DNA of 64,000 bases from the NCBI GenBank assembly GCA_024226555.1, contig JAAELO010000508.1, forward strand, positions 43,279 through 107,278. The letters run 5' to 3'. The translations under genes were made by a program, and so were the position numbers. Every line of letters begins with the position of its first letter. Position 1 is the stretch's first letter. Under the pieces are notes generated by a model that ran no database searches, was not told the origin of the DNA, and worked only from the letters and a program-made list of their open reading frames with translations. Origin of the DNA: Desulfobacterales bacterium. Lineage in GTDB: Bacteria > Desulfobacterota > Desulfobacteria > Desulfobacterales > JAAELO01. This document shows, piece after piece, positions 6,861 through 62,136 of this stretch.

Positions 6861-6989
6861 GGGAACCTCTAATAACTGCTCTTTTGGCGAAACCCTTTGT
6901 TATTTCCGAAAAAAACTGTAATAAAATCGGCTCGTTATTTTTGGAAATGCCTTGTATTTCATCCAAAATTCTAATTATTAGAGGTTCCC
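6861..6989 (+). mobile_element. MITE-like element, copy 1 (129 bp, minimal form)
   Basis: Perfect 15-bp terminal inverted repeat GGGAACCTCTAATAA / TTATTAGAGGTTCCC. Flanked by ATTA (6857-6860) and ATTA (6990-6993). Strand sign is an arbitrary orientation: + means the CTCTAATAACTG arm comes first. Confidence 0.85.
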
Positions 6990-7094
6990 ATTAACTAAAG
7001 AAAATGTTTTATATAGAAACATAAAAACTGTGGAAATTTATCAAGCCAGAAAAGACACCCTCTTAGAAGAAGTTTATCACATTTCAATAAAGGT

Positions 7095-8339
7095 TTATTC
7101 CAAAATATTTTCCCACACTTTCTTTGCCCCACCCCTCTTACTTTTCAAATAATCTCCCACTTTTTTCATAATATCACTCTTATCAGAAGTTTTGCTAAGA
7201 TTCTCACATATTGTTTGTGCAACACCAACTTCATCTTCTGAAATAGTTACAAGTCCCTCTTCAACAATTTCATTACCAAGCCAGAGAAAATTATCCCACG
7301 ATGGCCCAATCACAGGTATTACACCACACATAACTGGTTCTAAAAAATTTTGTCCCCCAAGATCTGCGAGGCTCCCACCTACAAATACAGCATCAGCAAT
7401 TTCATATGAAAGGGAAAGCTCTCCAAATGTGTCCCATAAGATAACCTCTCCACCATTAACTTTCTTTTTTATTTCAGATCGTAGAGTGTATTTAATTTTG
7501 TTTATTTCAAATATTTTCTGCCAGGACTCAATTCTGTGCATATGTCTTGGGAAAAGACCAATAACCGTTTCAGGTTTTTGTTTTAAGACCTCATTAATAA
7601 TATATGTGACTTTCTCCTCTTCCTCTTCACGAACAGATCCTAAAACAAGGAATCTTTCTGAAACTATCTTTTTTAATGGGTTTTCGCTACTTTTATTAAA
7701 GCCTGCAATGCGTTCAAACTTTATATTATTCATAACACAGGTTTCTGTTTGAAAGAGTTCATTAAAAAGTTTCGCATCAAGCTCTTTAGTTGCAAGAATT
7801 TTTGAAGGCGCAAGCTTTGGCCAAAGAAAAGATATTTTTTTATAACCCCTCATGCTTTTTTCTGTAATTCTGCCATTTACTATAATTGTTTTTACTTTGT
7901 TCTTTTTCAGTGCATAAAAAAGGCCAGGCCAGATCTCAGTCTCAAGAATAACAACAATTTTTGGATTGTATTTTTTTACAGCTTTATTCATTAGAGAGGG
8001 CTTGTCAAATGGCAGATATCTAATCTCAAGTGAGAGATTAGGGTTACATTTTTTTTGGACCACTTTTTCAAGAATTTCTATACCCTGGCTTGTGCATGTG
8101 GTTAAAAGTATGTTTATTTTTTCTTTATGATCAGCTTTTTCAAGGAGTGTTTCAACAAGGTATGCTTCACCAGCTGAAGCAGCCTGGATCCAAATATCCT
8201 TTTTTGTTAATAGAAAACCCTTAAGTTTTCTTTCTTCAAAACCTTCTCCAATTCTCTTATGATTTTTCAGAAATGGTGTGACCAATATCCACAAAATTTC
8301 ATAAAAAAGAAAAAGGATTTTTACTGCAATATTAGTCAT
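7095..8339 (-). CDS. waaA: 3-deoxy-D-manno-octulosonic acid (Kdo) transferase
   Basis: IWIQAASAGEAYLVETLL, ILETEIWPGLF and FVGGSLADLGGQNFLEP are typical WaaA/KdtA blocks. Confidence 0.9.
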   Translation of the reverse strand: MTNIAVKILFLFYEILWILVTPFLKNHKRIGEGFEERKLKGFLLTKKDIWIQAASAGEAYLVETLLEKADHKEKINILLTTCTSQGIEILEKVVQKKCNPNLSLEIRYLPFDKPSLMNKAVKKYNPKIVVILETEIWPGLFYALKKNKVKTIIVNGRITEKSMRGYKKISFLWPKLAPSKILATKELDAKLFNELFQTETCVMNNIKFERIAGFNKSSENPLKKIVSERFLVLGSVREEEEEKVTYIINEVLKQKPETVIGLFPRHMHRIESWQKIFEINKIKYTLRSEIKKKVNGGEVILWDTFGELSLSYEIADAVFVGGSLADLGGQNFLEPVMCGVIPVIGPSWDNFLWLGNEIVEEGLVTISEDEVGVAQTICENLSKTSDKSDIMKKVGDYLKSKRGGAKKVWENILE

Positions 8340-8348
8340 TCTCCCACC

Positions 8349-9407
8349 TTATTCTTTAATTTTATCTAAGAAAAAGTTATCAAACCCCTCATCAATAAAC
8401 TCAATATCAATCGATACAATCAGCAGATTTTTAAAGTTGTTAATCTTTTGGATTTTAACAAAATCTTTCTCTGTTGTTACTATAAAATCACAGCCTTTGG
8501 AACTTTCATATATATCATCAATATCTGCCCGCTCATATCTGTGATGATCTTTATACTCTTTAAAACCTTCAACAATTAAACCTAAGGAGGTGGTGCTTTG
8601 TCTGAATTTATCATTGTGGGCTATGCCTGAAAATGCAAATGCCGACTTTCCATTTAAAATATTTAAATCACAATTCCCATCAACATTATAAATTGATTCT
8701 TTATGGGTTGTTCTGAAAATATTTTTTGAAGGGATTATATTTTTTAGTGAATCAGGGTCAACACCTTTGTATCTTGTTAAGATAAAAGCATCTCCAAGCG
8801 ATAGATACTTTAAAGGATCTCTTAAAGACCCCCTTGGAATAAGATGTCCATTTCCAAATGGCTTATCACTGTCTAATAATATAATTTCAAAGTTTCGATC
8901 TATTTTCAGATGCTGGAAACCATCATCTAATATTAAGAAATCGGCACCGCCAATTACTGCTTTATCAGCTGATTTACACCGACTGCTCCCAACATAGACA
9001 GGAACATTTTTTAGTTTTTCAGCTATTAGGTAAGGCTCATCGCCTGCTTCATAAACATCTGCAAGCATCTTTTCACCATCATGGACAACGGCTCCCTTTT
9101 CCTCAAGAGTTCCGCCATATCCCCTGCTAATAACAGCTGGATTAAAACCATTTTCTTTTAAAAGTTTTGCAAGATATATTGTAAATGGTGTTTTGCCAGT
9201 ACCGCCTACTGTTATATTACCTACAGATATTACCTTAACAGGTGAGGAGAAAGACTTAAAAATATCTTTATTATAGAAGGTTCGCCTTGTTGAAACTATT
9301 AACCCAAAGATCTTTGAAAGAAGATACAGGATAAATTTTACTGAAAAAAAAGGAGTTTTTCCATCGTCATATATAATATCCTCAATTTTCTTTCTAAGTC
9401 TTTCCAT
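8349..9407 (-). CDS. lpxK: tetraacyldisaccharide 4'-kinase
   Basis: VISVGNITVGGTGKTP P-loop, ISRGYGG, ILDDGFQH. Confidence 0.92.
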   Translation of the reverse strand: MERLRKKIEDIIYDDGKTPFFSVKFILYLLSKIFGLIVSTRRTFYNKDIFKSFSSPVKVISVGNITVGGTGKTPFTIYLAKLLKENGFNPAVISRGYGGTLEEKGAVVHDGEKMLADVYEAGDEPYLIAEKLKNVPVYVGSSRCKSADKAVIGGADFLILDDGFQHLKIDRNFEIILLDSDKPFGNGHLIPRGSLRDPLKYLSLGDAFILTRYKGVDPDSLKNIIPSKNIFRTTHKESIYNVDGNCDLNILNGKSAFAFSGIAHNDKFRQSTTSLGLIVEGFKEYKDHHRYERADIDDIYESSKGCDFIVTTEKDFVKIQKINNFKNLLIVSIDIEFIDEGFDNFFLDKIKE

Positions 9408-9413
9408 TATTAA

Positions 9414-11653: not shown

Positions 11654-11665
11654 ACAAATTATTAT

Positions 11666-28194: not shown

Positions 28195-28745
28195 TTTTTT
28201 ATATCTCTCCGGTTCAATGAACTATAATATTTGGAGACTCCGAAAGGAATTTAGCAAATGATCTATTATTTTGACAGACCTTTAGTTTTTTTTAAAGGTT
28301 TAAATAAATATTTTTAATGTATATTGAACTATTTCAAAACCATACAAAATATTAAATGATTATTTATTGAATGATAAACCTGTTGAAAAACACAAAAAAA
28401 TTTATCTATAAAACATTGTGTACGAAAAACCCTGAAACTAATAATTTTCCAAGGTGCTGTTTTATGATATCTGTTTTAATCGAAATATTTTGGGAAAGTT
28501 TGTTAAACTGTTAGAGATTTCAAATTTTATAAACCTATTTCTGATAATAAATAATGAACAATTCATCAAACAACACCCTTAATTTACCATTTTCGCTTTA
28601 TTTATTGATATATTTTTGTAAAATTCCGATTTTTTCAAAAATATTTATAAAAATTTCTATTGAAAATAAGATTTCTTAATTATAGGATATATTGTTTTGG
28701 TTTTAATATTAATTTGAATAATTTATAATAATAGAATAAAAAAAA

Positions 28746-29414
28746 ATGAATTTATCTTTATCTGAACTTGCAAAAAAATTAAATCTTCCAGAAAGTACTG
28801 TGGAAAGATGGATTAAACAAGGTAGAATGCCTGTTCACAAAGAGAGTGGGAAATGTATCTTTAACAAATCATCTCTGATAAAATGGGCCTCAAAACATAA
28901 TCTTAAGTTTATGATCTTTGAAGAGAATAACAAAATTGGAGATGATAAAAAGGAATTAACCTTTTTATCATCCATGGAAAATGGTGAAGTCTTCTACGAT
29001 GTAAAAGGTGAAGATATATATGGTGTTCTTGAAAATGCTGTGAATAAAATCAGTTCGTTTGATGAAAATCAGAAAAAAGATCTATTAGCTAAATTGATAG
29101 AGAGGGAAAACCTCACTTCAACAGGTATTGGTAATGGAATTGCAATTCCTCACCCGAGAGTCCCTGTTGAAAATTTTTCCGAATCTGCCGTTATTACTTG
29201 CTTCATTGATGGAACAGTTGATTTTAATGCCATTGATGGAAAACCTGTCTTCATACTTTTTATTCTTCTTAGTCCATCTACAAAAGAGCACCTTAGTTTA
29301 TTGTCCAAACTCGCATTTTGCATGAGAGATATATCCTTTGTTGAGTTTTTAAAGTCAAAACCCTCAAAGGACTCTTTAATTGAAAAAGTGTCTGAATTTG
29401 AGAATAAAAGTTAA
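28746..29414 (+). CDS. fusion of an excisionase/MerR-type HTH with a PTS EIIA(Ntr)-type domain
   Basis: N-terminus LSELAKKLNLPESTVERWIKQGRMPV (HTH). EIIA type-2 motif TGIGNGIAIPHPR with the phosphorylatable His. Confidence 0.75.
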   Translation: MNLSLSELAKKLNLPESTVERWIKQGRMPVHKESGKCIFNKSSLIKWASKHNLKFMIFEENNKIGDDKKELTFLSSMENGEVFYDVKGEDIYGVLENAVNKISSFDENQKKDLLAKLIERENLTSTGIGNGIAIPHPRVPVENFSESAVITCFIDGTVDFNAIDGKPVFILFILLSPSTKEHLSLLSKLAFCMRDISFVEFLKSKPSKDSLIEKVSEFENKS

Positions 29415-29438
29415 CAATAAAACATGAGCAATTATTAA

Positions 29439-31157
29439 ATGAGAAAGCTATTTTCACTACGCTCTCCATCCAGATGGTTTTTTTTTAGAGCTGATGACAG
29501 ACTTCTGCTTATATTAATGGGCATTATTGTTGGTATCTGCAGTGGCCTTGCAGCCCTGGCACTTAGTTATTCACTTGAAACTCTTCTTGAGTTTTTTCAC
29601 CACTATAGTCAACACTGGTGGGTCTTTATTCTGCCTGCAATCGGTGCAGCTCTATCCTCATTTTTTTTAAACTATGTTTTAAAAGAGGGAGCAGGTCATG
29701 GTGTTCCTGAAGTTATATACAGTGTTTCCAGATACGGAGGGCTTATAAGATTAAGATCCAGTTTTTCCAGACTTGTATCAAGCTGTTTAACTATAGGCTT
29801 TGGTGGATCAGCAGGGCCTGAAGCGCCTGTTGTAATGAGTGGCGCGGCCATAGGGTCAAATATTGCCAATTTCTTCTACCTCAATGACCGCCAAAGAGTA
29901 ACTCTTGTTGGTTGTGGTGCAGCTGGTGCTATCGCTGCTATTTTCAATGCTCCAATAGCTGGCATGATTTTTACAATGGAAGTGATATTAGGTGAATGGT
30001 CGATGGTAAATATCATCCCCATTGCTATAGCATCTGTTGCTGGAGCAGAAACCAGCAGACTTCTGGTGGGAAATTATATAAAGTTTTCACACCTTACACT
30101 CAACACTAATTTTATTGATATGGTTGCATGTTTTGGACTTGCTGCTGTTACTGCAATAGTTTCAATCTTAATGACACGTATGTTAAGGAATATGCACCAT
30201 GTATCTGAAAAGGTCAAAACCAAACCATGGATAAGAGCTGCAATGGGCGGGTGTCTTGTCGGGCTTTTGGGTTTTCAGGTTCCTGAAGTTCTTGGAGAGG
30301 GATATCATGCAATAGAAGCAATGGTTCAGGGGACTTTTAAAGCTGGATTACTGGTAGTTGCAGTGGCTGCATTTGCTAAAATTTTAGCAACTTCCTTAAC
30401 ACTAGGTTGGGGTGGTTCTGGAGGGATATTTGCGCCATGTCTTGTAATAGGAAGTTTTACAGGATTAGCCTTTCACAGACTTTTGGTTATAGTTTTCCCG
30501 GAAATAGCATGGGTTAATGAAGGTTGTTTTGCACTTCTTGGCATGGCAGGCATGATAAGCGGCATTCTACAAGCACCTCTTACCGGTATCTTTCTAATAG
30601 TCGAAATTACAGGTAGTTCCGAAGTGATGCTACCTTTGATAGCTGTATCATCAATATCCACTACTTTATGCCACTATTTTGAACCAGCATCATTCTACGT
30701 TAAAGACTTAGTGGAAAAAGGACAACTATTAAGACCTGGTACAGACGAAAGAGTTCTTACAGATCTTTCAGTTGCTGAACTGCTTGAATTTGATTGTGTT
30801 GTCATTAAAAAGAATATGATGTTCAGGGAGTTTATTGAAGTTGTGAAATCTTCAAAAAGGAATTATTATCCTGTTGAAAATGAGGATGGTAGTTTCGCTG
30901 GAATTGTTTATTTTGATGAAATAAGACCATATCTTTTTGACACACTGATGTATGATGCAATAATCATAGAACAAATAGTTGATGACAAAGTCCGGGTTGT
31001 TAATTATACAGATGACTTGTCTGAAGTTTTAAAAACAATGGATAATAATGGACTTTACAGCATGCCTGTTGTATCAAATAATAGATTTGCAGGTATGATT
31101 TCAAAGGCCACGATTTTAGACCATTATAGAAAGGAACTGAAAGTTCAAACTACTTAA
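29439..31157 (+). CDS. ClC family chloride channel / H+-Cl- exchanger with a C-terminal CBS pair
   Basis: GAGHGVPEV, GGSAGPEAP, GGIFAP and GILQAPLTGIFLIVEITG motifs, with CBS domains in the last ~130 aa. Confidence 0.88.
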   Translation: MRKLFSLRSPSRWFFFRADDRLLLILMGIIVGICSGLAALALSYSLETLLEFFHHYSQHWWVFILPAIGAALSSFFLNYVLKEGAGHGVPEVIYSVSRYGGLIRLRSSFSRLVSSCLTIGFGGSAGPEAPVVMSGAAIGSNIANFFYLNDRQRVTLVGCGAAGAIAAIFNAPIAGMIFTMEVILGEWSMVNIIPIAIASVAGAETSRLLVGNYIKFSHLTLNTNFIDMVACFGLAAVTAIVSILMTRMLRNMHHVSEKVKTKPWIRAAMGGCLVGLLGFQVPEVLGEGYHAIEAMVQGTFKAGLLVVAVAAFAKILATSLTLGWGGSGGIFAPCLVIGSFTGLAFHRLLVIVFPEIAWVNEGCFALLGMAGMISGILQAPLTGIFLIVEITGSSEVMLPLIAVSSISTTLCHYFEPASFYVKDLVEKGQLLRPGTDERVLTDLSVAELLEFDCVVIKKNMMFREFIEVVKSSKRNYYPVENEDGSFAGIVYFDEIRPYLFDTLMYDAIIIEQIVDDKVRVVNYTDDLSEVLKTMDNNGLYSMPVVSNNRFAGMISKATILDHYRKELKVQTT

Positions 31158-31279
31158 GGCAACCTTTTTAGAATTTGAAGCTTGCTCAAAAAGCAGCAAT
31201 TAGGTTACCTTAGAATTGAACTTTCTAAATTTTTTAGGAGAATTAGCTCCTATAATTTTTTTTACTAAGGGGGTTTTAT

Positions 31280-32107
31280 ATGGATTCTCAACTGTTTCAT
31301 ATTTTCAGGAACACACCCCTGGGGAGAGAGACGCTTCTTCAATCAATTTACTTTAGTAAACAAACCAACGCCTCTTTAAATATTTATATTCCCAAGTTTA
31401 TAAAATTTCTAATGTATTTTGATAACGATGTTGTACAAGTTGACCTTGATGAATCATACCTTTCATCACCGGATACAGCATTAGATCGCGTAAAAAATCT
31501 TGTTGAATCAAACGGGCTTTCTGCAAACTTTATTGAACCTAAAAATTTTACGGCATCAACCTTACCTGACATTCCTGTTAATTTTGACTTTATGTGCAGC
31601 CCAAGAAGCATAAGCGATCTAACATCAAAAATTGGGTTAGGCCATATTGGTACGAGGGTTCGTAGAATTGTTCAATCAGCAAAATTTCCTGTTCTAATCA
31701 CAACTCCTGTCTACAGTGAGTGGAATAATATTACAGTCTTTTTTGGAGGATCTCACAACTCAATAAAAGCACTTAAGCTTGGAATAAGATTAAGCCGTCT
31801 AACGGGTAAGGAACTTTTCATCTTCACTCAACTTGATGGTAAAAAAAGAGAGCACTACCAAGAAATTCTGGAAAAAGAGGAACTCCAGAAAGAGATTAAT
31901 CTGATGGTAACCAAATGGAATTTCTATGGGTCAAAAAGCTTTGAAGAAAACCTTTATAACGTACCACATGATTCCCTTGCCATAGTTGGAGCATATGGAC
32001 ATAGCGTAATAAAAAATATTATATTTGGAAGCAAAATGGAAAAAATTCAATCAACTATTCAAAATAACTTTCTCGTTGTTGGACCAAATTATGGACAAGT
32101 TAGTTAG
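31280..32107 (+). CDS. universal stress protein family protein (tandem Usp-like)
   Basis: C-terminal ATP-binding motif G-x2-G-x9-GS visible as VGAYGHSVIKNIIFGS. Confidence 0.55.
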   Translation: MDSQLFHIFRNTPLGRETLLQSIYFSKQTNASLNIYIPKFIKFLMYFDNDVVQVDLDESYLSSPDTALDRVKNLVESNGLSANFIEPKNFTASTLPDIPVNFDFMCSPRSISDLTSKIGLGHIGTRVRRIVQSAKFPVLITTPVYSEWNNITVFFGGSHNSIKALKLGIRLSRLTGKELFIFTQLDGKKREHYQEILEKEELQKEINLMVTKWNFYGSKSFEENLYNVPHDSLAIVGAYGHSVIKNIIFGSKMEKIQSTIQNNFLVVGPNYGQVS

Positions 32108-32266
32108 AGATTTGGTTTTCTGGTATTTATAGTTTATTTTGCAAGTTAAAAGTCTTCGAATACGTTCTAAATGATATTTTAACAGATCTGCCATAATTTC
32201 TATAAAAGTGGCGGGCTTCTTACCTTAAAAAATTATGTTTAAAATTTGATAATTTTAAAGCAAAAA

Positions 32267-32309
32267 AAAACTGATATGAAATAACCCCAGGGGTTTTCAT
32301 ATCAGTTTT
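32267..32309. terminator. bidirectional terminator between the convergent usp-like and AP2 genes
   Basis: 15-bp stem aaaactgatatgaaa / tttcatatcagtttt with a GC-rich tip (cccc/gggg). An A-run precedes it and a T-run follows it. Confidence 0.75.
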
Positions 32310-32319
32310 CTAATTCGGT

Positions 32320-32949: not shown

Positions 32950-33250
32950 AATTATATATCTTATAGATTGTATAATATGTGCTTGAACAAAAACGTTAAC
33001 ATACGTTCGCTGGGCATCTGCCTTTCGCACAATATTAAGATTAATAAAACAAAGGCTATAACCCAACTTATTTAAAAGAGCGATACCTTACCTAAAGGTA
33101 AGGTTCTAAAGCAAAAACAGAATTTCCTTATCAAGATCCTTAATGATTCATGATCAAGGTAAATCCTCTTTCTTAATAGGTTGATGTATTTAATACAATA
33201 AAATGAAAAAATCAACTAAATTCTACTTTATTTTTTTGTTTGAAAACTAT

Positions 33251-36283: not shown

Positions 36284-36326
36284 AAATCAAAAATCCAAAT
36301 TTTTATATAGTCGTGAATTGAATCAT

Positions 36327-36410
36327 GAGAACTTCCAATAACTATAACTTTTATTGAAATTCAACGTTTATAAAAGCTTTTTGTTTTATAAGCGTTTATT
36401 AGAGGTTTCC
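36327..36410 (+). mobile_element. MITE-like element, short degenerate copy (84 bp)
   Basis: Ends GAGAACTTCCAATAACTATAAC ... GTTTATTAGAGGTTTCC. The interior is only the AT palindrome module (aacgtttataaaagctttttgttttataagcgtt). Flanks are TCAT / TTAT. Confidence 0.55.
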
Positions 36411-36503
36411 TTATAATATTTTTTGATACGGCTTATGATAAGATCGTAATATTGTTTAACAGTAACACATTTCGTGGAAAATAGACAGGTATTATGTATT
36501 ATT

Positions 36504-37706: not shown

Positions 37707-37926
37707 CTATTTAAATTTTTAAATTTTCTTTTTTTAGTATTTTCTAACAAAATCTTTCTGTTTCCCATTTATCACTTAACATATTAATTGTAAATGAATA
37801 TTTTAACCTAATTAATAAAGATAGTTATTAAGTAAATAGCTTTTCTGTTATGGATTATTAGACATTATTCTGTATCTGTTTTTAATTGCAGTATTGTCAT
37901 ATTTTTCTTTAAAAAGGAGGTAATAT

Positions 37927-39146: not shown

Positions 39147-39304
39147 AGGAATCTCTAATAACTGTTCTTTTTGCGAAATATTTCGTTTTTACAAAAATCT
39201 GTTGTAAAATCAGATCGTTAATTTTTGTCATGCAGAAATTTTATAAAACTAAAAGCTTTTATTAATCTGTATTTCAATCAAAAGTTCAAATTATTAGAGT
39301 TCCC
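39147..39304 (+). mobile_element. MITE-like element copy (158 bp)
   Basis: AGGAATCTCTAATAACTGTTCTTTTTGCGAAA ... CAAATTATTAGAGTTCCC. Carries the ttttataaaactaaaagcttttat module. No clean duplication (TGTA / TCAA). Confidence 0.8.
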
Positions 39305-39696
39305 TCAAATATATTCCCAATTTTTACTAATCCTTTGCTGTTAAATATTTCACACTTGATTGTTTCTAATAAATTGCATTTTTCTATTTTTATATGAAAA
39401 GCACCTAATGTGTGAAATTATTCACACTCGCAATCTACGTAAAAGTCTATTTATAAAGGCTGGACGTTTTATTTCTTTTACGACCTTGCCTAAATTCCTG
39501 TCTTCGTCTTAAAAATTATTAAACATTAATTGTAAAAATAAAACACTGAACTTTAAAAATAAAAGGAGAAACCGATGATTTTAATCTACCAAAACGAATG
39601 TATGGATTTTTTTAATAAACCGAAAAAGATTCCACAGAAATTAAAACCATTTATAAAGTCCCAATAATTTAAAAATAAAAAAGTGAGAAAAAAGAT

Positions 39697-41379
39697 ATGA
39701 ATTCATCTTATAGCAAAATTGAAAATGTTGTAGAAGATTATTTCAGCGATGAAAAGATTGATAAAACGGCAAACAAAAATTTATCTTATGATATTGAAAA
39801 AAGACATGTATCTTTAAAGCATGCAAAAAATTCACTTATTCACCTTATTGAAGCAGGATTCTCAACTAAAGACAGATCAATGACATTTTTACGAGTTAAA
39901 GATTTGATCAAAGAAGGAGCTGATGTAAATCAACGATCAAAAGATGGTAATACACCACTAATTGCAGCCATTCAAATGAACTGTTTTGAAACCTCAGATC
40001 TGCTTTTAAAAAATGGTGCTGATATTGGATGTACAAATGTATCTGGTGAAAACGCAATTGATATCGCTAAAAGAAATAAGAACAAAAAGATACTTACTCT
40101 TTTATTAAACAAAAGATCAAAAACCAAAGTAACTTTAAAAGAATCGTTAGAGTCTACTGATGTTAATTTTTTCAAAGCGCTTCTCAAAGATGCTACAACA
40201 AGACAAAGGGGTGCAGCGCTTCTTGAAACAGCTATACTGCATGATACAGAAAAAGCTTTTTTAATTCTGGAATACAAAATTAGTCAACTAACCCTAAATA
40301 AGGCATTTTTTATTTTTTTAACACAGATTAAAGATGAACAGATTCTTATAAGGGTTTTGAAGAGATTAATTGATAAAGGCGCAGAAGTTAAATCAAGGGA
40401 TGAAAATGGTAATACATTACTTCTTGCATCCCAATTAAAATATAAACTAATCTGTTTTCTTATAGATGCTGGTGTTAATCCAAATTTCAGAAATCAGAAA
40501 GGTGAGACACTTATTTTAAGAGCGGTACGATTAAATGCTTTTGATATAATAAAGTTGCTTGTTGAAAAAGGAGTGGACCTCAACCACTTGAATAACGATA
40601 AGGAATCAGCTCTATATTTAGCTATAAGAAACAGTAATCTTGATATTATACGATACCTGATCAAAAACAGTGCTGATCTAAATCAGGAAACCAGAGGCGA
40701 TTTAACACCTCTCTATCTTTTAAACAGATATAATATGCTGAAATTTGTCATGGATGCGAAATTGCCCCCTCGTAAAGGTGAGAATAAAAAGTCCCTTAAT
40801 TACAATTTTGAGATCATTGATCCTAAGGAGAATATTGATCATTTTTTCCCTTGTACAAATAACATAATTGATCACTGGGATGAAACGGATGTAACCGGAG
40901 AACTCAACATTAGCATTGAAGGAGAGATAAAACCTCTTACTATTCATTATAAACAGTACAAATATGGAAATCATTATTATAGCACATGGGATAAGAAACA
41001 CTATATAGCAACGTTAAGGTACGATGGAATTAAAATTGTTACTAAGGAGTATTTCACCTATTCCAAATATTATGAGAAAACATCTGATAAAATAAATACC
41101 ATAACTATGGATGCTCTTTCTGATTCAGGTATCTGTTTCTCTGAAATTGTTGAGAGAGTATTAAATGGAGAGGATTTAGTTCTTGTTAAAGAAAAATCAC
41201 ATTTAACAATTGGGGATTCAATCTATAATGAGACACCTTTCCACAGTCTTAGCTTTACAGAACATAAAAAGGTTCAAAAGGGTAATCATTATGTAAAAGT
41301 GAAAGAAGATTTCAGAATTTTTCTTGATTTAAATACACATAATGCCTGCATACAAAGAGATACTTCAGCTTATTTATAA
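39697..41379 (+). CDS. ankyrin-repeat protein with an uncharacterised C-terminal ~200 aa
   Basis: Repeats such as DGNTPLIAAIQMNCFETSDLLLKNGADI, NGNTLLLAS..LIDAGVNPN and KESALYLAIRNSNLDIIRYLIKNSADLN. Confidence 0.85.
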   Translation: MNSSYSKIENVVEDYFSDEKIDKTANKNLSYDIEKRHVSLKHAKNSLIHLIEAGFSTKDRSMTFLRVKDLIKEGADVNQRSKDGNTPLIAAIQMNCFETSDLLLKNGADIGCTNVSGENAIDIAKRNKNKKILTLLLNKRSKTKVTLKESLESTDVNFFKALLKDATTRQRGAALLETAILHDTEKAFLILEYKISQLTLNKAFFIFLTQIKDEQILIRVLKRLIDKGAEVKSRDENGNTLLLASQLKYKLICFLIDAGVNPNFRNQKGETLILRAVRLNAFDIIKLLVEKGVDLNHLNNDKESALYLAIRNSNLDIIRYLIKNSADLNQETRGDLTPLYLLNRYNMLKFVMDAKLPPRKGENKKSLNYNFEIIDPKENIDHFFPCTNNIIDHWDETDVTGELNISIEGEIKPLTIHYKQYKYGNHYYSTWDKKHYIATLRYDGIKIVTKEYFTYSKYYEKTSDKINTITMDALSDSGICFSEIVERVLNGEDLVLVKEKSHLTIGDSIYNETPFHSLSFTEHKKVQKGNHYVKVKEDFRIFLDLNTHNACIQRDTSAYL

Positions 41380-41393: not shown

Positions 41394-41521
41394 GTGAATC
41401 TCTAATAACTGATCTTTTTGCGAAACACAGATATAACAAAAATAAAACTGTTGTAAAATCAACCCGTTGTTTTTTGTTATGCCTTGTTTTTCATCAAAAA
41501 TTCTAATTATTAGAGATTCCC
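41394..41521 (+). mobile_element. MITE-like element copy (128 bp, minimal form)
   Basis: GTGAATCTCTAATAACTGATCTTTTTGCGAAA ... CTAATTATTAGAGATTCCC. Flanked by TTAA (41390-41393) and TTAA (41522-41525). Confidence 0.85.
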
Positions 41522-42525: not shown

Positions 42526-42545
42526 GGGAATCTCTAAAATTATTT
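42526..42545 (+). repeat. solo element terminus (GGGAATCTCTAAAATTATTT)
   Basis: Matches the element end for about 12 nt. It lies 55 bp upstream of the next full copy. Confidence 0.4.
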
Positions 42546-42600
42546 GGTTGGAATACATAATAATTTCATTTATAATCAGTATTATTACCTCAAATGTTTA

Positions 42601-42761
42601 GGAAAACTATAATAACTGTTCTTTTGAACAAATACTGCGTTTTTCGAAAATGGAATTACCTTTAAAACGTAGGCAATTTTTTCTCATGCAGAGATTTTAT
42701 AAAACTGAAAGCTTTTATAAACGTTGAATTTGAAACAAAACTCCAATTATTAGAGGTTCCC
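42601..42761 (+). mobile_element. MITE-like element copy (161 bp)
   Basis: GGAAAACTATAATAACTGTTCTTTTGAAC ... CCAATTATTAGAGGTTCCC. Flanked by TTTA (42597-42600) and TTTA (42762-42765). Confidence 0.85.
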
Positions 42762-44939: not shown

Positions 44940-45953
44940 ATGAAAAAAAAGAAAAAAATTCTTCTTGTTGATGACAACACAGACTCTCTTCGTGAAATGA
45001 GAAGTTTACTTAACTCGATCTCTTTTAAAGATATATTTCTCACGGATTCAATTGATAAAGCCTGGGTAATTGTTAATAAAAAACAGATCGATTGTGTAAT
45101 ATGCACATGGGAAATGACTGCGATGTCTGGTCTATCCTTGTTAAGAAGCATACGAAATGAGGACAACTTTTTCAATCTTCCTTTTTTTCTGTCCCATCAT
45201 GCATTTACTAAGATAAAAGTTATTCAGGCAGGTCACAGTGGAGTTACTGGCCTTTTTGTTAAACCTTATAGTGCCAACAATGTTAAACAAAAACTCCTAA
45301 AACTTCCTGCACAATATAACATTCCTGAACCCACATATGAAAATGACATGCTTGAAAAGGGTAAGAAATTTGCTGAAAGTGGAAGTTTCGAAAAAGCAAT
45401 CAGTGTTCTTGATACTCTTTTGGAAAATGGCGAAACAGCTGAGTTTTATTACAATAAAGGTTATATACTAACTACTGAAAACAGATTTGAAGAGGCTATA
45501 AGAGCTTTTAAAAAAGCAACTCAGTTAGACAGACTTTTTGCTAAAGCTTATCAGGAAATGGGAAAAGCTTACTTGAAATTAGGCAGGCGAAAAGAAGCTG
45601 AAAAGTATTTACAGAAAGCAGCTGATATAAATATGGAAAATGATGATATTGAAACAGCAGAAAAAATTTTAAATGATATTATGGAGATGGACCCACAAAC
45701 TGTTAATATTTATAACAGTCTGGGAGTTTTGCATAGAAAAAAGGGAAACCTGGAGTTTGCCCTTAAGCAATACATTAAAGCTTTAAAAGTACATCCCGAA
45801 GAACCATTTATTATGTACAATATTGGAAGGCTTTACCTCGATATGAATAATGCTGCTAAAGGTAAAGAGTATTTTGAGATGGCATTAAAACAAAATCCTC
45901 AGTTTAAAGAAGCGAAACAAGTGATTCGAGCTATAGAATTAGGTAGCCTATAG
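44940..45953 (+). CDS. receiver-domain (phospho-acceptor Asp replaced) plus TPR-repeat protein
   Basis: Start moved to MKKKKKILLVDDN. CVICTWEMTAMSG aligns to CheY [13 protein letters not shown], so D57 becomes T. K109 is retained in FVKPY. The C-terminal half contains TPR units. Confidence 0.75.
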   Translation: MKKKKKILLVDDNTDSLREMRSLLNSISFKDIFLTDSIDKAWVIVNKKQIDCVICTWEMTAMSGLSLLRSIRNEDNFFNLPFFLSHHAFTKIKVIQAGHSGVTGLFVKPYSANNVKQKLLKLPAQYNIPEPTYENDMLEKGKKFAESGSFEKAISVLDTLLENGETAEFYYNKGYILTTENRFEEAIRAFKKATQLDRLFAKAYQEMGKAYLKLGRRKEAEKYLQKAADINMENDDIETAEKILNDIMEMDPQTVNIYNSLGVLHRKKGNLEFALKQYIKALKVHPEEPFIMYNIGRLYLDMNNAAKGKEYFEMALKQNPQFKEAKQVIRAIELGSL

Positions 45954-46109
45954 GGAATCTCTCATAATTAGAATTTTGATTGAAATACAAGGTTGATAAA
46001 AAAACAACGAGCCGGTTCGTTTATAAAAAGTTTTTATTTTATAAAGTTTACAGTTATTTTTTTTGAAAAACGCAGTAGTTCAGTCAAAAAGCAGTTATTA
46101 GAGAATCCC
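45953..46109 (-). mobile_element. MITE-like element copy (157 bp), inverted orientation
   Basis: GGGAATCTCTCATAATTAGAATTTTGATTGAAATACAAGG ... GCAGTTATTAGAGAATCCC. Its first G is the last base of the upstream TAG stop. Flanks are TATA / TTTA. Confidence 0.8.
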
Positions 46110-51349: not shown

Positions 51350-51514
51350 GGGAACCTCTAATAATTAGAATTTTGGATGAAATACAAGGTTTGATAAAAA
51401 ATAACGAGCCGATTTTATTACAGTTCTTTTTAGAAATATACTCCGTTGTTTTGTTTTTATTCTTTTTAAAACAACTTAAGTATTTAGCCAAAAGATCAGT
51501 TATTAGAGACTCCC
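51350..51514 (-). mobile_element. MITE-like element copy (165 bp), inverted orientation
   Basis: GGGAACCTCTAATAATTAGAATTTTGGATGAAATACAAGG ... TCAGTTATTAGAGACTCCC. Flanked by TAAA (51346-51349) and TAAA (51515-51518). Confidence 0.85.
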
Positions 51515-51568
51515 TAAAGAAGTATATTTATCATTATACTTCTTTTTCGACTTAAATGAGGTATCCTT

Positions 51569-52990
51569 TTGCTAAAAAAAGAGTTCAATAAAGTCCCTGG
51601 CGATGTAAAAACAATACATCTGATTGCTGTTTGTGGAACTGGTATGGGAGCGCTTGCCTGTATGTTAAAAGATCTGGGATATGAAATAACGGGCTCAGAC
51701 CATGCAGTGTATCCACCCATGAGTGATTTTCTTAGAAATAAGGGTGTTATCATTAATGAAGGTTTCAATGAAGAAAACCTTAACTATAAACCAGATCTTG
51801 TAATTGTTGGGAATGCTATCAGTTCTGATAATTCTGAAGTCGCAGCTATTCTAAAAAAAAGTCTATACTACTGTTCAATGCCCCAGGCTCTTAATTTCCT
51901 GGCTTCCAAAAACAAAAAACAACTTTTAATTACAGGAACCCACGGAAAAACAACCACTTCATCTTTACTCTCATACATACTGTTCAAAGCCGGACTGGAG
52001 CCATCTTTCATGATAGGTGGTATTTTAAAAAATTTTGACAGCAACTACAGAATTGGCAGTGGAGATTATATAGTTATTGAAGGAGATGAATACGATACAG
52101 CCTTTTTTGATAAAGGTGCTAAGTTTTTCCATTATAATCCTTCAATAGCAGTTCTTGGAAATATTGAGTTTGATCATGCTGATATATTTACTGACCTTAA
52201 CCATGTTAAAAATACTTTTAAAAGATTTGCTGATGGAATGGATGTAAATAGTTCTCTTTATACTTTCGATACAGATCAGAATATAAAAGATGTAACAGTT
52301 GATACTAATTGTAAAATAGTAAACTATGGAAAGAGAACTGAATCAGACTGGTCACTTGGAAAGTTCTATCCAAATCCACCATATAATAATTTTGAAGTGT
52401 ATAAAAAGGGAGAACTTTTTAGTAATTTTGAAACACGATTAACAGGTGAGCATAATCTTTTAAATGCACTTTCTGTTATAGCAATTGCAGACTCTCTAAA
52501 TATCCAGAAAGATATTATAAAATCAGCCCTTAAGTCTTTTGAGAGTGTCAAAAGAAGGCAGGAGATAAGAGGGGTTAAAAAAGGAATTACAGTGATGGAT
52601 GATTTTGCACATCATCCAACAGCAGTTAGAGAAACTGTCAAAGCTTTGAAACCATTTTATTCAGGAAAAATAATAGCAGTATTTGAACCCAGAACAAATT
52701 CAAGTATGCGTGATATTTTTCAGAATATCTATCCCTCTTCATTTGATGATGCAGACCTCATTTTTATAAGAGAGCCGTCAATGATTAAGAAAGTTTCTGA
52801 ATCAGAGAGATTTAGTTCAAAGAAACTCGTATCTGATTTAAATTCAAAAGGGAAAGAAGCTTACTACTATAACGAAACTGAATCCATAATGGAACATATT
52901 GCTAAAATTGCTGAAAAAAACGATCTGGTCTTAATTATGTCAAATGGTGGTTTTGATAACATCCACGAAAGGTTACTGGACATACTATAA
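51569..52990 (+). CDS. mpl: UDP-N-acetylmuramate:L-alanyl-gamma-D-glutamyl-meso-DAP ligase (murein peptide ligase)
   Basis: IHLIAVCGTGMGALACMLKDLGYEITGSDHAVYPPMS parallels E. coli Mpl. GTHGKTTT P-loop. TTG start as called in the track. Confidence 0.85.
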   Translation: MLKKEFNKVPGDVKTIHLIAVCGTGMGALACMLKDLGYEITGSDHAVYPPMSDFLRNKGVIINEGFNEENLNYKPDLVIVGNAISSDNSEVAAILKKSLYYCSMPQALNFLASKNKKQLLITGTHGKTTTSSLLSYILFKAGLEPSFMIGGILKNFDSNYRIGSGDYIVIEGDEYDTAFFDKGAKFFHYNPSIAVLGNIEFDHADIFTDLNHVKNTFKRFADGMDVNSSLYTFDTDQNIKDVTVDTNCKIVNYGKRTESDWSLGKFYPNPPYNNFEVYKKGELFSNFETRLTGEHNLLNALSVIAIADSLNIQKDIIKSALKSFESVKRRQEIRGVKKGITVMDDFAHHPTAVRETVKALKPFYSGKIIAVFEPRTNSSMRDIFQNIYPSSFDDADLIFIREPSMIKKVSESERFSSKKLVSDLNSKGKEAYYYNETESIMEHIAKIAEKNDLVLIMSNGGFDNIHERLLDIL

Positions 52991-54170: not shown

Positions 54171-54325
54171 AGGAACCTCTAATAATTGCTCTTTTTTCGA
54201 AATACTTCGTTATAACCAAAAAAACTGTTGTATTTTATAAATTAAAGCTTTTTATAAACGAATCCTCTCGTTATTTTTTGTTATTACTTGAATTTCATCA
54301 AAAATTTCTAATTATTAAAGGTTCC
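54171..54325 (+). mobile_element. MITE-like element copy (about 155 bp)
   Basis: AGGAACCTCTAATAATTGCTCTTTTTTCGAAA ... CTAATTATTAAAGGTTCC. Flanks are TTTA / TTTT, so the exact boundary is ambiguous by 1 nt. Confidence 0.8.
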
Positions 54326-54443
54326 TTTTATTGACTTTAAAAAATGTTTTAATTAACATTAAAATAAATTTTTCAGGTATAAATATAAATAGGAATCTCA
54401 ACCGAAACTCACAAGCCGGAACTGCCCCTTTACGAGGATATAG

Positions 54444-55501: not shown

Positions 55502-55739
55502 AGCAACCTCTAAAAGTTTTGTTTGTTTTGATCGAACTACAGTGGTTTCCGCTAATCAACTTGCAATGCTGTGAATGCTTCGCATTATACTGGTTTGTTC
55601 ACAAAACAATAACGTTTATAAAATAAAGCATTTTTATAAACGAATCTGCTTGTTACTGTTTTCTCACCCAAAGATTTTATAAAACTAAAAACTTTTATAA
55701 TCTGTATTTCAAACTAAATTATAGCAATGAGAGGTTCCC
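55502..55739 (+). mobile_element. MITE-like element, long form (238 bp) with an extra ~80-nt module
   Basis: AGCAACCTCTAAAAG ... AATGAGAGGTTCCC. Contains the gaactacagtg..gcaatgctgtgaatgcttcgcattatactg module and two AT palindrome modules. It ends 4 nt from the stop codon of the GGDEF gene. Confidence 0.75.
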
Positions 55740-56766: not shown

Positions 56767-56820
56767 TTATTTTGTCCCTTTTATTTTTACCTGTAAATTT
56801 TATATTTTTTACAGATTAAA

Positions 56821-57061
56821 TGGAATCTCTAATAATTGCCTATAAAACAAAAGGCTTTAGTTTTGTTTGTTTTGACTGAACTACAGTGTCTTTCGTCTAT
56901 CAGCTTGTAATGCTGTGAATGCTTCGCATTACACTGAATTATTGCGAAAAAAGAACTGTAATAAAAACGGCTCGTCATTTTTTCTAATGCAGAGATTTTA
57001 TAAAACTAAAAGCTTTTATAAACGCTGTATTTCAATAAAAATTCTAATTATTAGAGGTTCC
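56821..57061 (+). mobile_element. MITE-like element, long form (241 bp) with an extra ~80-nt module
   Basis: TGGAATCTCTAATAATTGCC ... CTAATTATTAGAGGTTCC. Shares the gaactacagtg..gtaatgctgtgaatgcttcgcattacactg module with the 55502 copy. Confidence 0.8.
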
Positions 57062-57363
57062 TTAAATGTGGTTTTATTTTAAATTTAATAATAGCAAATC
57101 GTGATTTATAAAAAAAGTTTATAATTACCATTGATGAATAAAAAGGATTTCTATATTTTTTATAAACATAAAAATCCGATTTGCTCGCAAGGCATAAGGC
57201 GACTTCTAACTATTTAAATAATATCCTTTTTTATTCAAAGTTGCTTGACAATATTTATCAATTAATGTTAGGTTTCACAGTTTCAATTGGCTGGGCCTTT
57301 TGAAAAATATCCTTGCTTCTGAATATTATAATTCAGAGGCTTTAATATCCATGAGGAGGTTTT

Positions 57364-58544: not shown

Positions 58545-58570
58545 GTTCTTTTTGAATATAAGCGTTAAAA

Positions 58571-58611
58571 AAGCCTGGACTTTTAGTTTTATTAGTTCAG
58601 GCTTTTTTTTT
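58571..58611 (+). terminator. rho-independent terminator after rplI
   Basis: Stem aagcctggac / gttcaggctt with one G-U pair, followed by T9. Confidence 0.75.
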
Positions 58612-58659
58612 GATCTTAACCCAAAATTGTTCTATAAGAGATAGAACATTTAAAATAAA

Positions 58660-58844
58660 GGTAATCTCTAATAAATAGATTTTTGTTGAAATACAAAGAC
58701 TATAAAGGCTTTCAGTTTTATAAATCTGCGTGAGAAAAAGTAACGAGCGGATTCCGTTTATAAAAAGTTTTAATTTATAAACATACAACAGTTTTTTTTA
58801 CGAAATACGCAGTAGTTTGATAAAAAGAGTTATTAGAGAATCCC
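58660..58844 (-). mobile_element. MITE-like element copy (185 bp), inverted orientation
   Basis: GGTAATCTCTAATAAATAGATTTTTGTTGAAATACAAAG ... GAGTTATTAGAGAATCCC. Flanked by TAAA (58656-58659) and TAAA (58845-58848). Confidence 0.85.
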
Positions 58845-58869
58845 TAAACACCAAAAATAGAGATCTTTA

Positions 58870-60264
58870 ATGTATCAAAAAAAACCCTACAATCAAAATC
58901 AGGTTAACTCTGATCCGTATTTAAATAAGTTACCACCACAAAATATCGATGCAGAGGAATCTATAATAAGTGCAATATTATTAGACAGAAATGCTCTTAT
59001 TGAGATTGTCGATCTTCTTGAACCTGAAGATTTTTACAAAAAAGCTCATCAGGAGATATTTAAAGCTGCTGTTAAGCTTTTTTCTGATAATGAGCCTGTT
59101 GACCTTGTTACTTTAGCAAACAAGATGAAAGAGTCTGGGAAGCTTGAAGAGGTTGGAGGTGCAACTTTTTTAGCACAGATAGTAGACACTGTCCCTATGG
59201 CGGTAAATGCATCTCACTATGCTAAAATTGTTAAAGATAAAGCTATTTTAAGAGTTCTTATTGAGAAATCAAGTCACATTACCGAAAAGTGTTTTGATGA
59301 CAGAGGGGATGTTGATGAAATAATTGATTTTGCAGAAACCTCAATCTTTAAAGTTTCTGAAAAAAAGACTGTTAAGGCATTTACAACCATTAAAAAGCTG
59401 GTAAATGAGAACTTTAATACCCTTGAAGAACGTCAGAACAATGATAGTCAATTTACAGGTGTTCCTACAGGTTTTTCAAAGCTGGATGAAATAACTTCAG
59501 GATTACAACCATCTGACCTTATAATATTAGCAGCAAGACCCAGTATGGGTAAAACGGCATTTGCCCTTAACATAGCAAGAAATGTTGCGGTGGACGCCAA
59601 TGTTCCAGTGGCTGTATTTTCTCTTGAGATGGCAAATGATCAACTTTCCATGCGTCTGCTGACATCTGAAGCCAGAGTAAATTCAGCTCGTTTAAAAGGA
59701 GAGGGTTTTTTAAATCCCGATGACTGGAACAGACTTACTGATTCAGCAGAAGTTCTCTCTAATGCACCCATTTTTATAGATGATTCGGGTTATATCACTG
59801 CAATGGAGATAAGAGCTAAAACCAGGCGTTTGAAAATGGAACACAATTTAGGTCTTATAATAATAGATTACCTTCAGCTAATGAAAGGTTCCAGTAGCGG
59901 GGGCGACAGGAGAGACCTTGAAATTGCAGAAATTTCAAGATCTTTAAAGATGCTGGCAAAAGAACTTCAAATCCCGGTGATAGCCCTATCACAGCTTAAC
60001 CGTATGCTTGAGCAGAGAAACAATAAAAGACCGATGCTTTCGGATTTGAGGGAATCTGGTGCTCTTGAGCAGGATGCCGATATTGTTGCTTTTATCTATA
60101 GAGATGAAGTTTACAATAAAGAGGATGAAAACAATAAAGGAACTGCCGAGATAATTCTTGCAAAACATAGAAATGGTGAAGTTGGAACCGTCCACCTAAC
60201 CTTCATGGGTCAATTCACAAGGTTTGAAGACAGAGCTTTTGGGGATTATCCTGATCAAATGTAG
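58870..60264 (+). CDS. dnaB: replicative DNA helicase
   Basis: PPQNIDAEESIISAILLD, Walker A ARPSMGKTAF, IIIDYLQLM, SQLNR, LRESGALEQDAD. Confidence 0.95.
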   Translation: MYQKKPYNQNQVNSDPYLNKLPPQNIDAEESIISAILLDRNALIEIVDLLEPEDFYKKAHQEIFKAAVKLFSDNEPVDLVTLANKMKESGKLEEVGGATFLAQIVDTVPMAVNASHYAKIVKDKAILRVLIEKSSHITEKCFDDRGDVDEIIDFAETSIFKVSEKKTVKAFTTIKKLVNENFNTLEERQNNDSQFTGVPTGFSKLDEITSGLQPSDLIILAARPSMGKTAFALNIARNVAVDANVPVAVFSLEMANDQLSMRLLTSEARVNSARLKGEGFLNPDDWNRLTDSAEVLSNAPIFIDDSGYITAMEIRAKTRRLKMEHNLGLIIIDYLQLMKGSSSGGDRRDLEIAEISRSLKMLAKELQIPVIALSQLNRMLEQRNNKRPMLSDLRESGALEQDADIVAFIYRDEVYNKEDENNKGTAEIILAKHRNGEVGTVHLTFMGQFTRFEDRAFGDYPDQM

Positions 60265-60285
60265 GGAACCTATAATTAATTCTAC
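60264..60285. repeat. solo element terminus fragment (GGGAACCTATAATTAATTC)
   Basis: Begins with the last G of the dnaB TAG stop. No matching second end lies before the hflX start. Confidence 0.45.
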
Positions 60286-60309
60286 AACCATTAGTCACAA
60301 CGGGAATTT

Positions 60310-61932
60310 ATGAAAAAACTCCAGGGAAATCTGGCTGGGTTAAAATCCAATCACAAAAAAAGATTAGATAAGCTTTATAAAAGACGAATACCGGTTGAGT
60401 CCATAATAACAAAAGAGGTTGCCGATGAGCTTGCAAACCTGTCCCAGGAAACCGGAAGACAGATTGGACTCCTGATAAACAGATCAGGTAAGATAATATA
60501 TGTAATTGTTGGAGATCAGCAACAAATCTACATCCCTGAAACTCCGGATTATATCTCTTCACATGGAAGAATGAAGGGCTTAAGATGCATACATACACAC
60601 CTTAAAAACGAAGAACTCACCCAGGATGATTTTACAGATCTGTCACTTTTAAAATTAGATATTATTGCTGCTATTACAATAAAAAACAGTAAAGCAGATT
60701 TAATACATTCCGCTGTCATAAACCCCTTATCTGAAGCTCCATACAGGAAATTAGATTCTGTTCCAGCATACAAAATTCCTGATGATTGTAATTTTCTTAT
60801 TGAAGAAACAGAAGCTGATCTTTCTAAGGCAGAATCTTTACATATTTCTGAAAAAGGCAAAGAAAGAGCCTATCTTGTCAAAGTTTATACAGGCTCTAAA
60901 AATGATGCTCAGGATTCGATGTTAGAACTTGTTGAACTGACAAAATCAAGTGGGTTGAGCGTTATAGATACAACCCTTCAAAAAAGAAAAAAAATAGATC
61001 CAAACTTTGTTGTGGGAAAAGGAAAGCTTTTTGATATTGCAATCAATGCGATGCAAAAGGGCGCAACTATTATAATTTTTGATAGAGAACTGTCTCCATC
61101 TCAAATAAGATCTATAACAAACCATCTTGAGATGAAAATAATAGATCGAAACCAATTAATTCTGGATATTTTTGCACAAAGAGCAAAATCAAAAGAGGGA
61201 AAACTTCAGGTTGAACTAGCTCAAATGAAGTACATGCTGCCAAGACTTATTGAAATGAACACTGCCATGTCAAGATTAACTGGTGGAATTGGTGGACGTG
61301 GGCCTGGAGAAACAAAACTTGAGGTAAACCGAAGAACAGTACGTGATAAAATAAATAAACTTGAAAAATCAGTAAAAAAAGTTAGAGGTCAAAGAAAACA
61401 ACAAAAAGCACAAAGGGTTAAAAAAAATATTCCCGTGGTTTCAATTGTTGGCTATACAAATGCCGGAAAATCAACTCTTATCAACTCTCTTACCAATAGT
61501 AAAATTTACGCAAAAGATCAGCTTTTTGCAACTCTTGACCCTTCAAGCAGAAGGCTGAGGTTTCCTAAAGATATTGAAGTTATAATAACTGATACTGTTG
61601 GTTTTATCAGAAGGCTACCAAAAGAACTTGTAGAATCATTTAAAGCTACTCTTGAAGAGCTTGAAAGCGCCATAATACTACTTCACGTTATAGACATCAG
61701 TAATCCTTCATATGAAGACCATATCAGATCAGTTGAAAAAATATTAACTGATCTGAATCTCCATAAAATTAAAACAATTTATGTTCTTAACAAAATCGAC
61801 CAGTGTGAAAGTGACATAATAGAAGCTGCAATAAACAAAACAAGCGGCTATGCCATTTCAGCTATGGACAGATCAACGCTAAGCCCCCTTTTAGATGAAA
61901 TTGAGAATCTGTTAACTATTGGAAACCTCTAA
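60310..61932 (+). CDS. hflX: GTPase HflX
   Basis: IFAQRAKSKEGKLQVELAQMKY, GGIGGRGPGETKLE, G1 VGYTNAGKST, DTVGFI. The last four codons (GGA AAC CTC TAA) lie inside a repeat element. Confidence 0.92.
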   Translation: MKKLQGNLAGLKSNHKKRLDKLYKRRIPVESIITKEVADELANLSQETGRQIGLLINRSGKIIYVIVGDQQQIYIPETPDYISSHGRMKGLRCIHTHLKNEELTQDDFTDLSLLKLDIIAAITIKNSKADLIHSAVINPLSEAPYRKLDSVPAYKIPDDCNFLIEETEADLSKAESLHISEKGKERAYLVKVYTGSKNDAQDSMLELVELTKSSGLSVIDTTLQKRKKIDPNFVVGKGKLFDIAINAMQKGATIIIFDRELSPSQIRSITNHLEMKIIDRNQLILDIFAQRAKSKEGKLQVELAQMKYMLPRLIEMNTAMSRLTGGIGGRGPGETKLEVNRRTVRDKINKLEKSVKKVRGQRKQQKAQRVKKNIPVVSIVGYTNAGKSTLINSLTNSKIYAKDQLFATLDPSSRRLRFPKDIEVIITDTVGFIRRLPKELVESFKATLEELESAIILLHVIDISNPSYEDHIRSVEKILTDLNLHKIKTIYVLNKIDQCESDIIEAAINKTSGYAISAMDRSTLSPLLDEIENLLTIGNL

Positions 61933-62112
61933 TAATTAGAATTTTATGAAATACAATGCCTATAAAAAATAACGAACCGTTTTCTACAGTTCTTTTTTTC
62001 AAATAACTTAGGTGTTTTGCATTTCAAACAACTCAATGTAAAGTGAAACTCATATACATTGTTAAAGAAAAGTCGCAGTCGTTCGGTCAAAAGACAATTA
62101 TATGAGATTTCC
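61921..62112 (-). mobile_element. MITE-like element copy (192 bp), inverted orientation, inserted in the 3' end of hflX
   Basis: GGAAACCTCTAATAATTAGAATTTTATGAAATACAATG ... ACAATTATATGAGATTTCC. Flanked by TATT (61917-61920) and TATT (62113-62116). Confidence 0.85.
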
Positions 62113-62136
62113 TATTAATTATAGATTTATATTTTT

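Follow-up and report, generated by a model that had tools for sequence, protein, structure and literature searches.

A dense MITE family, very probably IS5-derived, in an uncultured Desulfobacterales genome

[quoted passage not shown] Among other small repeats, the Correia element makes a TA duplication, and repetitive extragenic palindromic (REP) sequences do not make target duplications. BrickBuilt and MITEPgRS of P. gingivalis and ATR of Neisseria are IS5-family MITEs (PMC4596501), and Chunjie of Geobacter has a 9-bp direct repeat and 21-bp terminal inverted repeats (PMC3184786). Here we analysed a 64,000-nt stretch of contig JAAELO010000508.1 from a Desulfobacterales bacterium (hereafter the window) and found in it a family of short repeated elements that is very probably an IS5-derived nonautonomous DNA transposon (MITE) family. 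As in bacterial MITEs, the elements are short, multi-copy and noncoding, with terminal inverted repeats, a duplication of fixed length and insertion polymorphism; as in IS5 derivatives, their termini are common to an autonomous element that encodes an IS5-family DDE transposase.

The likeness to BrickBuilt, MITEPgRS and ATR lies in noncoding sequence, terminal repeats that match resident IS5-family elements, variable internal modules and filled and empty sites between strains (PMC4596501). The ends of those elements (GAGACC...) belong, however, to another IS5 subgroup, their duplications are irregular (2–5 bp) and they number 10–20 copies per genome (PMC4596501), whereas the window family makes a fixed 4-bp duplication and is much denser, with 12 copies in 64 kb. 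Correia (Neisseria), ERIC, RUP, BOX and Chunjie (Geobacter) are likewise abundant, co-transcribed intergenic repeats of MITE-like, hairpin-forming type (PMC3184786, PMC10969869), and here, too, there is modularity of the BOX kind, in that an AT-rich hairpin cassette stands at several places within the elements. The termini and duplication sizes of these five differ from those of the window family, and promoter, terminator or RNase III functions find no evidence here; identity with Chunjie was rejected on the 4-bp duplication and the different termini. A full-text literature search for the terminus sequences and the accessions of the metagenome-assembled genomes (MAGs) found no paper.

Allowing up to two mismatches, the 15-nt terminus GGGAAYCTCTAATAA matched the window 21 times against 0.49 expected by chance, and at least 21 matches occurred in 0 of 100 shuffles. 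Pairing the matches in inverted orientation and scanning the window with an nhmmer profile built from 11 aligned copies gave 12 copies of 84–242 bp and one terminal fragment at 42526–42600 (Table 1), in agreement with the initial annotation, which had counted at least 12 intergenic copies with inverted termini; all 12 copies are intergenic. The terminal inverted repeats read GGGAAYCTCTAATAAYT, and past this common repeat the ends diverge into ...AATAACTGNTCTTTTTGCGAAA (A-end) and ...AATAATTAGAATTTTGATGAAATACA (B-end), so that each copy can be assigned an orientation: seven lie on the plus and five on the minus strand, both orientations having been reported before. No open reading frame (ORF) of at least 80 aa lies inside any copy, and the single listed ORF that touches one (51514..51768, minus strand) overlaps it by 1 base. 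The family occupies 3.2% of the window and is strongly clustered, with 11 of the 12 copies at 36–62 kb, one more than the ten first counted there, yet 63% of the intergenic DNA outside the elements lies at 1–36 kb. A profile scan of a related contig, L078, likewise found approximately 10 copies, fragments counted, within 20 kb.

Perfect AT-only 4-bp duplications flank 7 of 11 window copies, where chance would give 0.09; given the AT-rich composition of the flanks, the binomial P for at least six is approximately 9e-9. The six duplications listed earlier (ATTA, TTAA, TTTA, TAAA, TAAA and TATT) were all correct, and a seventh, TAAA at 56817/57063, joins them. A match at three of four flanking positions, previously ascribed to several further copies, holds for two. 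One of these is copy 36327–36410, whose TCAT/TTAT flanks are accounted for by a single TTAT at the corresponding empty site of a related genome (below).

To find elements with the same ends, we scanned one genome per species (596 Gb) for exact matches to GGGAAYCTCTAATAAYT. Because approximately 1,000 occurrences of such a 17-mer would be expected by chance in 596 Gb (an estimate), only inverted pairs with duplications were counted. Among the matches listed, which comprised 76 loci, a second, inverted terminus lay 49–361 bp away at 45 loci, and 30 of 46 inverted pairs bore a perfect duplication of exactly 4 bp, whereas a 5-bp duplication fitted one. The duplicated 4-mers were TTAA (10), ATAA (6), then TTAT, TAAA, TAAT and others. 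An all-against-all BLASTP comparison of the ORFs adjoining the termini at the 76 loci found no shared mobility gene, only pseudopilin and ABC-ATPase paralogs. Inspection of ORFs next to unpaired termini, however, drew attention to locus L023, where a 1,279-bp element (4831–6109) with window-type termini and a TTAA duplication encodes a 337-aa protein that scored 291 bits on the NCBIfam model NF033581, 'IS5 family transposase' (cutoff 140), and contains DUF772 and DDE_Tnp_1 domains.

We then examined 80 metagenome relatives of this transposase (66–93% identity). In 64 of them both ends were present, 1.27–1.52 kb apart (63 within 1.27–1.32 kb), which gives a full-length element of approximately 1.29 kb with a left inverted repeat GGGTTCCTCTAAAAATT, a right inverted repeat GGGAACCTCTAATAATT and, at many copies, TTAA-type 4-bp duplications. 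The flanks were unequal at many full-length copies, probably because the metagenome flanks are chimeric. Of the other 16 relatives, 15 had one end and one had neither, and several stop at a contig end near the transposase gene. The B-end of the window family matches the right end of these insertion sequences over approximately 26 nt (GGnAACCTCTAATAATTnGAATTTTGA), and its A-end resembles their left ends. More distantly, an IS5-family element on a Sphingopyxis plasmid has a 56% identical transposase, the inverted repeat GGGCACCTCGAAAAATG and an AAAG duplication. E. coli IS5 and its group share with the full-length element a DDE_Tnp_1 transposase of NF033581, a length of approximately 1.2–1.3 kb, repeats of approximately 16–17 bp with the pattern GGnAnnnnCnAAtAA and a 4-bp duplication. 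Unlike IS5, the window elements are geneless, end in GGGAAYCTCTAATAAYT rather than GGAAGGTGCGAATAAG and lie at AT-only 4-mers that are not strictly YTAR; a full-length alignment of InsH of IS5 with the matching transposase gave 27% identity (E 3e-31). The shared inverted repeats, the 4-bp AT-rich duplications and the NF033581 transposase together indicate that the parent was an IS5-group element. IS5-, IS701- and IS1380-type transposases had all been named in the initial annotation as makers of 4-bp duplications, without a choice of parent; the longer, transposase-encoding element with the same termini settles on the first, and the other two, being unnecessary, were set aside on the IS5 match alone.

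The loci with these termini span at least eight phyla, assigned from record titles (Thermodesulfobacteriota, Planctomycetota, Bacillota, Pseudomonadota, Bacteroidota, Nitrospinota, Nitrospirota and Spirochaetota), and the interiors of the elements at these loci are unrelated to the window family, whose profile matched only contigs of this lineage and one marginal sequence. The same termini on unrelated short elements in so many phyla suggest that one IS5 clade seeded many MITE families. That a single clade with near-invariant 17-bp ends did so independently in at least eight phyla is better supported than a co-option of the family as RNA elements (below), if of weaker novelty. Tourist may offer a parallel, both in its short AT-rich targets and in that one transposase clade would there, too, have seeded many unrelated MITE families, as it would have across bacterial phyla here; the comparison is one of analogy and not of sequence, and Tourist differs in its 3-bp (versus 4-bp) duplication and its eukaryotic hosts.

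A different arrangement of such ends was seen in a termite-gut Planctomycetaceae MAG, Cd354_bin63, where the same IS5-type terminus heads each 112–142-bp unit of a tandem array (L065, 3581–4450). The units all have one orientation and contain GC-rich hairpins (CACGGGGTAAACCCCGTCG). Such termini stand at the ends of many of the short contigs in this MAG.

Comparison of orthologous loci, proposed in the initial annotation, revealed empty sites with a single 4-mer for copies 36327, 41394 and 58660. Contig L084 (GCA_024449855.1), which is 90–97% identical to the window in DNA, lacks copy 36327–36410 and reads AATTATAAT there, with a single TTAT; it also lacks copy 41394–41521 at the orthologous site, and its counterpart of the 39.1–39.7-kb spacer carries a different copy, in the opposite orientation and at another position than that of the window. 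In L081, an ENA metagenome contig with an 86% identical DnaB, the rplI–dnaB spacer is collinear with that of the window minus copy 58660–58844 and one TAAA. The reverse holds at 63829–63832, where the window shows a single ATAA: L082, which belongs to the assembly of L084, carries a 184-bp copy there with ATAA on either side. Presence and absence in both directions show that the family has moved in both lineages since their split. The description of the family as recently active thus stands on the scale of genomes 6–20% diverged in DNA. It does not extend to closer relatives: the window is 99.5–99.9% identical to contigs of MAG GCA_024224625.1, with the same copy sets, which leaves current activity unproven.

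The repeats, the duplications, the IS5 ends and the insertion polymorphism all support the earlier proposal that these are nonautonomous DNA transposons with 4-bp duplications. In the mechanism that we propose, a DDE transposase of IS5 type, its gene lying elsewhere in the genome, would recognize the approximately 17-bp terminal inverted repeats (GGGAAYCTCTAATAAYT), excise or copy the element and insert it at AT-only 4-bp targets (TTAA, TAAA, ATAA, TTAT and similar), and repair of the staggered cut would leave the 4-bp duplication; the A-end would derive from the left and the B-end from the right end of the insertion sequence. Mobilization in trans by a resident transposase is what we infer from these features, as is any effect on neighbouring genes. 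The position pattern, we conclude, reflects mainly AT-only targets together with purifying selection against insertions elsewhere.

Several observations weigh against an IS5-derived mobile family. No transposase was found in the window by tblastn with an IS5 transposase or by Pfam searches of the window genes, as had already been stated from the ORF list, and neither an autonomous element nor a transposase was present in the approximately 50 kb of related contigs that we read. At four of 11 copies the duplication is imperfect or absent, the copies are only 64–86% identical to each other (mean 72%), and copy number does not differ among the 99.5–99.9% identical assemblies. The last two points would suit decayed, immobile relics, with the differences between genomes arising as deletions or assembly errors instead of insertions, and metagenome assemblies do break at these repeats. 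We nevertheless hold this explanation to be quite improbable, because the four presence/absence sites have exact element boundaries and a single 4-mer at the empty site, one of them being an insertion in the relative and not in the window, and because the termini average approximately 1 mismatch per 15 nt and are far better conserved than the interiors. This identity pattern accords with several source variants having been amplified while the transposase selected their ends, rather than with simple decay. Intergenic, palindromic and abundant repeats could also call to mind palindromes of the REP/REPIN type, mobilized by RAYT, a tyrosine transposase, or other non-DDE repeats such as integron attC sites or CRISPR-like arrays. 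The anatomy led us to reject these readings as exceedingly improbable: the target duplications are fixed at 4 bp, the ends are the same as the inverted repeats of DDE elements in the IS5 family, the composition is AT-rich and not GC-rich as in REPs, a GTAG head motif and regular spacing are both absent, and no RAYT, integrase or cas gene occurs among the window genes.

A further explanation regards the elements as RNA structures with a function, original or acquired (terminators, mRNA stabilizers or processing sites), and transposition as no more than their means of spread. Most copies are predicted to fold as long hairpins if transcribed, as the initial annotation had anticipated (z −0.9 to −9.6 versus shuffles), and the two core copies of 128–129 nt pair almost end to end; 11 of the 12 copies sit 0–141 nt downstream of a stop codon, and in two cases the upstream gene's stop codon is completed by the copy or lies within it. 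Lying mostly just downstream of genes, the copies would share the transcripts of these genes and form long hairpins in them. Relative to transcription, however, orientation shows no bias, with four sense and four antisense copies between co-directional genes, and no U-tract follows the hairpins. Terminator-like sites in the window came to 8 and 9, compared with 5.2 and 6.6 for shuffles, only one of them inside a copy, and scans for terminator and promoter consensus sequences gave no enrichment. rplI keeps its own GC-rich intrinsic terminator (58565–58612, AAAAAGCCTGGAC…GTTCAGGCTTTTTTTTT), conserved in L081 and separate from and upstream of copy 58660. The earlier suggestion of a terminator role was therefore not supported. 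Relatives lack copies at orthologous sites, interiors are poorly conserved, Rfam covariance models at gathering score gave 0 matches in the whole window, and ARAGORN found no tRNA or tmRNA there. On this balance a functional RNA role appears improbable, and we similarly think it unlikely that the family has been co-opted as modular RNA elements, with the cassette as functional module and copies past stop codons or in the dnaB leader tuning mRNA stability or translation. Copy 58660, placed between the rplI terminator and dnaB, does interrupt the leader or promoter region of dnaB in this lineage, and the copies may affect mRNA stability or the dnaB leader.

At two genes the elements reach into the coding sequence. 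The first G of copy 45953..46109 completes the TAG stop codon (45951–45953) of a response-regulator/TPR gene, and hflX has its last three codons and its TAA stop within the inverted repeat of copy 61921 (61921–61932); HflX of L081 has a different end (…TDEPR).

As an IS5-derived MITE family, the elements add a well-documented and unusually dense example to an uncultured, low-GC Desulfobacterota lineage and connect this example with one particular IS5 clade. Its copies account for assembly breaks in this organism and mark where strain-level rearrangement occurs; a ready annotation marker for such repeats is provided by the nhmmer profile, which as proposed was built from the copies, and by the 17-bp terminus; and the recurrence of the same ends across phyla is a data set on how one transposase clade spawns many nonautonomous families. 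The elements are an ordinary kind of bacterial mobile DNA and open no new biological question.

Table 1. Copies, fragments and an empty target site of the family in the window (window coordinates; TSD, target-site duplication)
Feature	Coordinates	Strand	TSD or flanks	Remarks
MITE copy, 129-bp core form	6861..6989	+	ATTA (6857-6860 / 6990-6993)	Both termini 0 mismatches; nhmmer E 6e-34; end-to-end fold, z −7.2; flanked by two minus-strand genes, Kdo transferase and DUF4416
Short 84-bp deletion derivative	36327..36410	-	TCAT/TTAT	Precisely absent at L084 orthologous site
MITE copy with internal AT-rich hairpin cassette	39147..39305	+	No TSD	
MITE copy, 128-bp core form	41394..41521	+	TTAA	nhmmer E 3e-27; fold z −9.6; begins 15 nt past stop of ankyrin-repeat gene; absent at L084 orthologous site
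Terminal fragment, B-end-like, of another copy	42526..42600	+		Terminus 2 mismatches; weak nhmmer match; abuts element 42601
MITE copy with hairpin cassette	42601..42761	+	TTTA	
MITE copy	45953..46109	-	TATA/TTTA (3 of 4)	
MITE copy	51350..51514	-	TAAA	
MITE copy with hairpin cassette	54171..54326	+	2 of 4 matching	
Long-subfamily copy	55502..55739	+		Degenerate left terminus AGCAACCTCTAAAAGTT; nhmmer E 1.5e-8; between convergent genes
Long-subfamily copy, 242 bp	56821..57062	+	TAAA	Divergent spacer, GAF-GGDEF gene / rpsF
MITE copy with two hairpin cassettes	58660..58844	-	TAAA	Between rplI terminator and dnaB, 25 nt upstream of dnaB ATG
Possible solo terminus GGGAACCTATAATTA	60264..60278	+		2 mismatches; dnaB–hflX spacer; uncertain, may be chance
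MITE copy	61921..62112	-	TATT	Present in L082 with different internal indels
Empty target site	63829..63832	.	Single ATAA	Window reads CCTTTATAATAGGC uninterrupted; filled by 184-bp copy in L082 (4953-5136)

No partner arm was found for the possible solo terminus at 60264..60278; the dnaB–hflX spacer in which it lies measures 45 bp in the window versus 12 bp in L081.

The AT-rich hairpin cassette, 26–28 nt long (TTTATAAAnnnAAAGCTTTTATAAA), had 23 of its 24 pattern matches in the window and related contigs inside MITE copies. Its positions include 39240–39265, 42696–42721, 46020–46045, 54234–54258, 55676–55701, 58699–58724 and 58757–58781. Within the copies it takes one of two or three places, copy 58660 having two cassettes, which makes the family modular in the manner of BOX.

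Copy 55502–55739 differs between near-identical assemblies. In MAG GCA_024224625.1 its halves lie on separate contigs (L167, 5060–5066; L078, 7456–7462), with at least 11 kb of extra DNA between them, ATCGA on both flanks and the breakpoint at window positions 55528–55535; the extra DNA encodes PadR, an ABC transporter, an SNF2 helicase and more, and is in turn filled with MITE copies. In the window the copy is unbroken, and across 55528–55535 it is collinear with its paralog 56821–57062. The difference amounts to a structural variant or translocation at strain level, accompanied by a 5-bp duplication. The assembly of L082 and L084 has contig numbers above 13 million (JAANSV013347191), which, speculatively, could mean a host-associated or very complex sample.

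The window has a G+C content of approximately 32%, and the best named relatives of its DnaB come from Desulfobacterales and Deltaproteobacteria MAGs (66–68% identity), a placement that the encoded class III cytochrome c and NrfD/molybdopterin complex fit. Its first half consists of tight housekeeping operons (lipopolysaccharide synthesis and export, molybdopterin oxidoreductase and arginine synthesis), and its second half mostly of single signalling genes; a 560-aa ankyrin-repeat protein is encoded at 39697–41379. A 1.4-kb segment (602–2004) contains no ORF of at least 100 aa, no tRNA and no Rfam match. A second, unrelated repeat, the 21-mer AAATACAAGGCGTCRAGACAT, occurs twice (1759–1779 and 3280–3300) versus 0 expected; at 3261–3367, in front of a SpoU methylase gene, it makes up an imperfect inverted repeat of 40 nt, and this palindrome may be another small palindromic element. 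Genes run mainly on the minus strand up to 28.2 kb and mainly on the plus strand from 37.9 kb, with mixed orientation at approximately 28200–37900 and single minus-strand exceptions in the plus-dominated part at 55.7 kb and beyond 62.1 kb. GC skew turns from negative to positive across the same mixed segment, with a cumulative minimum near 36–44 kb. A joint switch of orientation and skew is the pattern expected around a replication origin, for which this segment is a candidate only.

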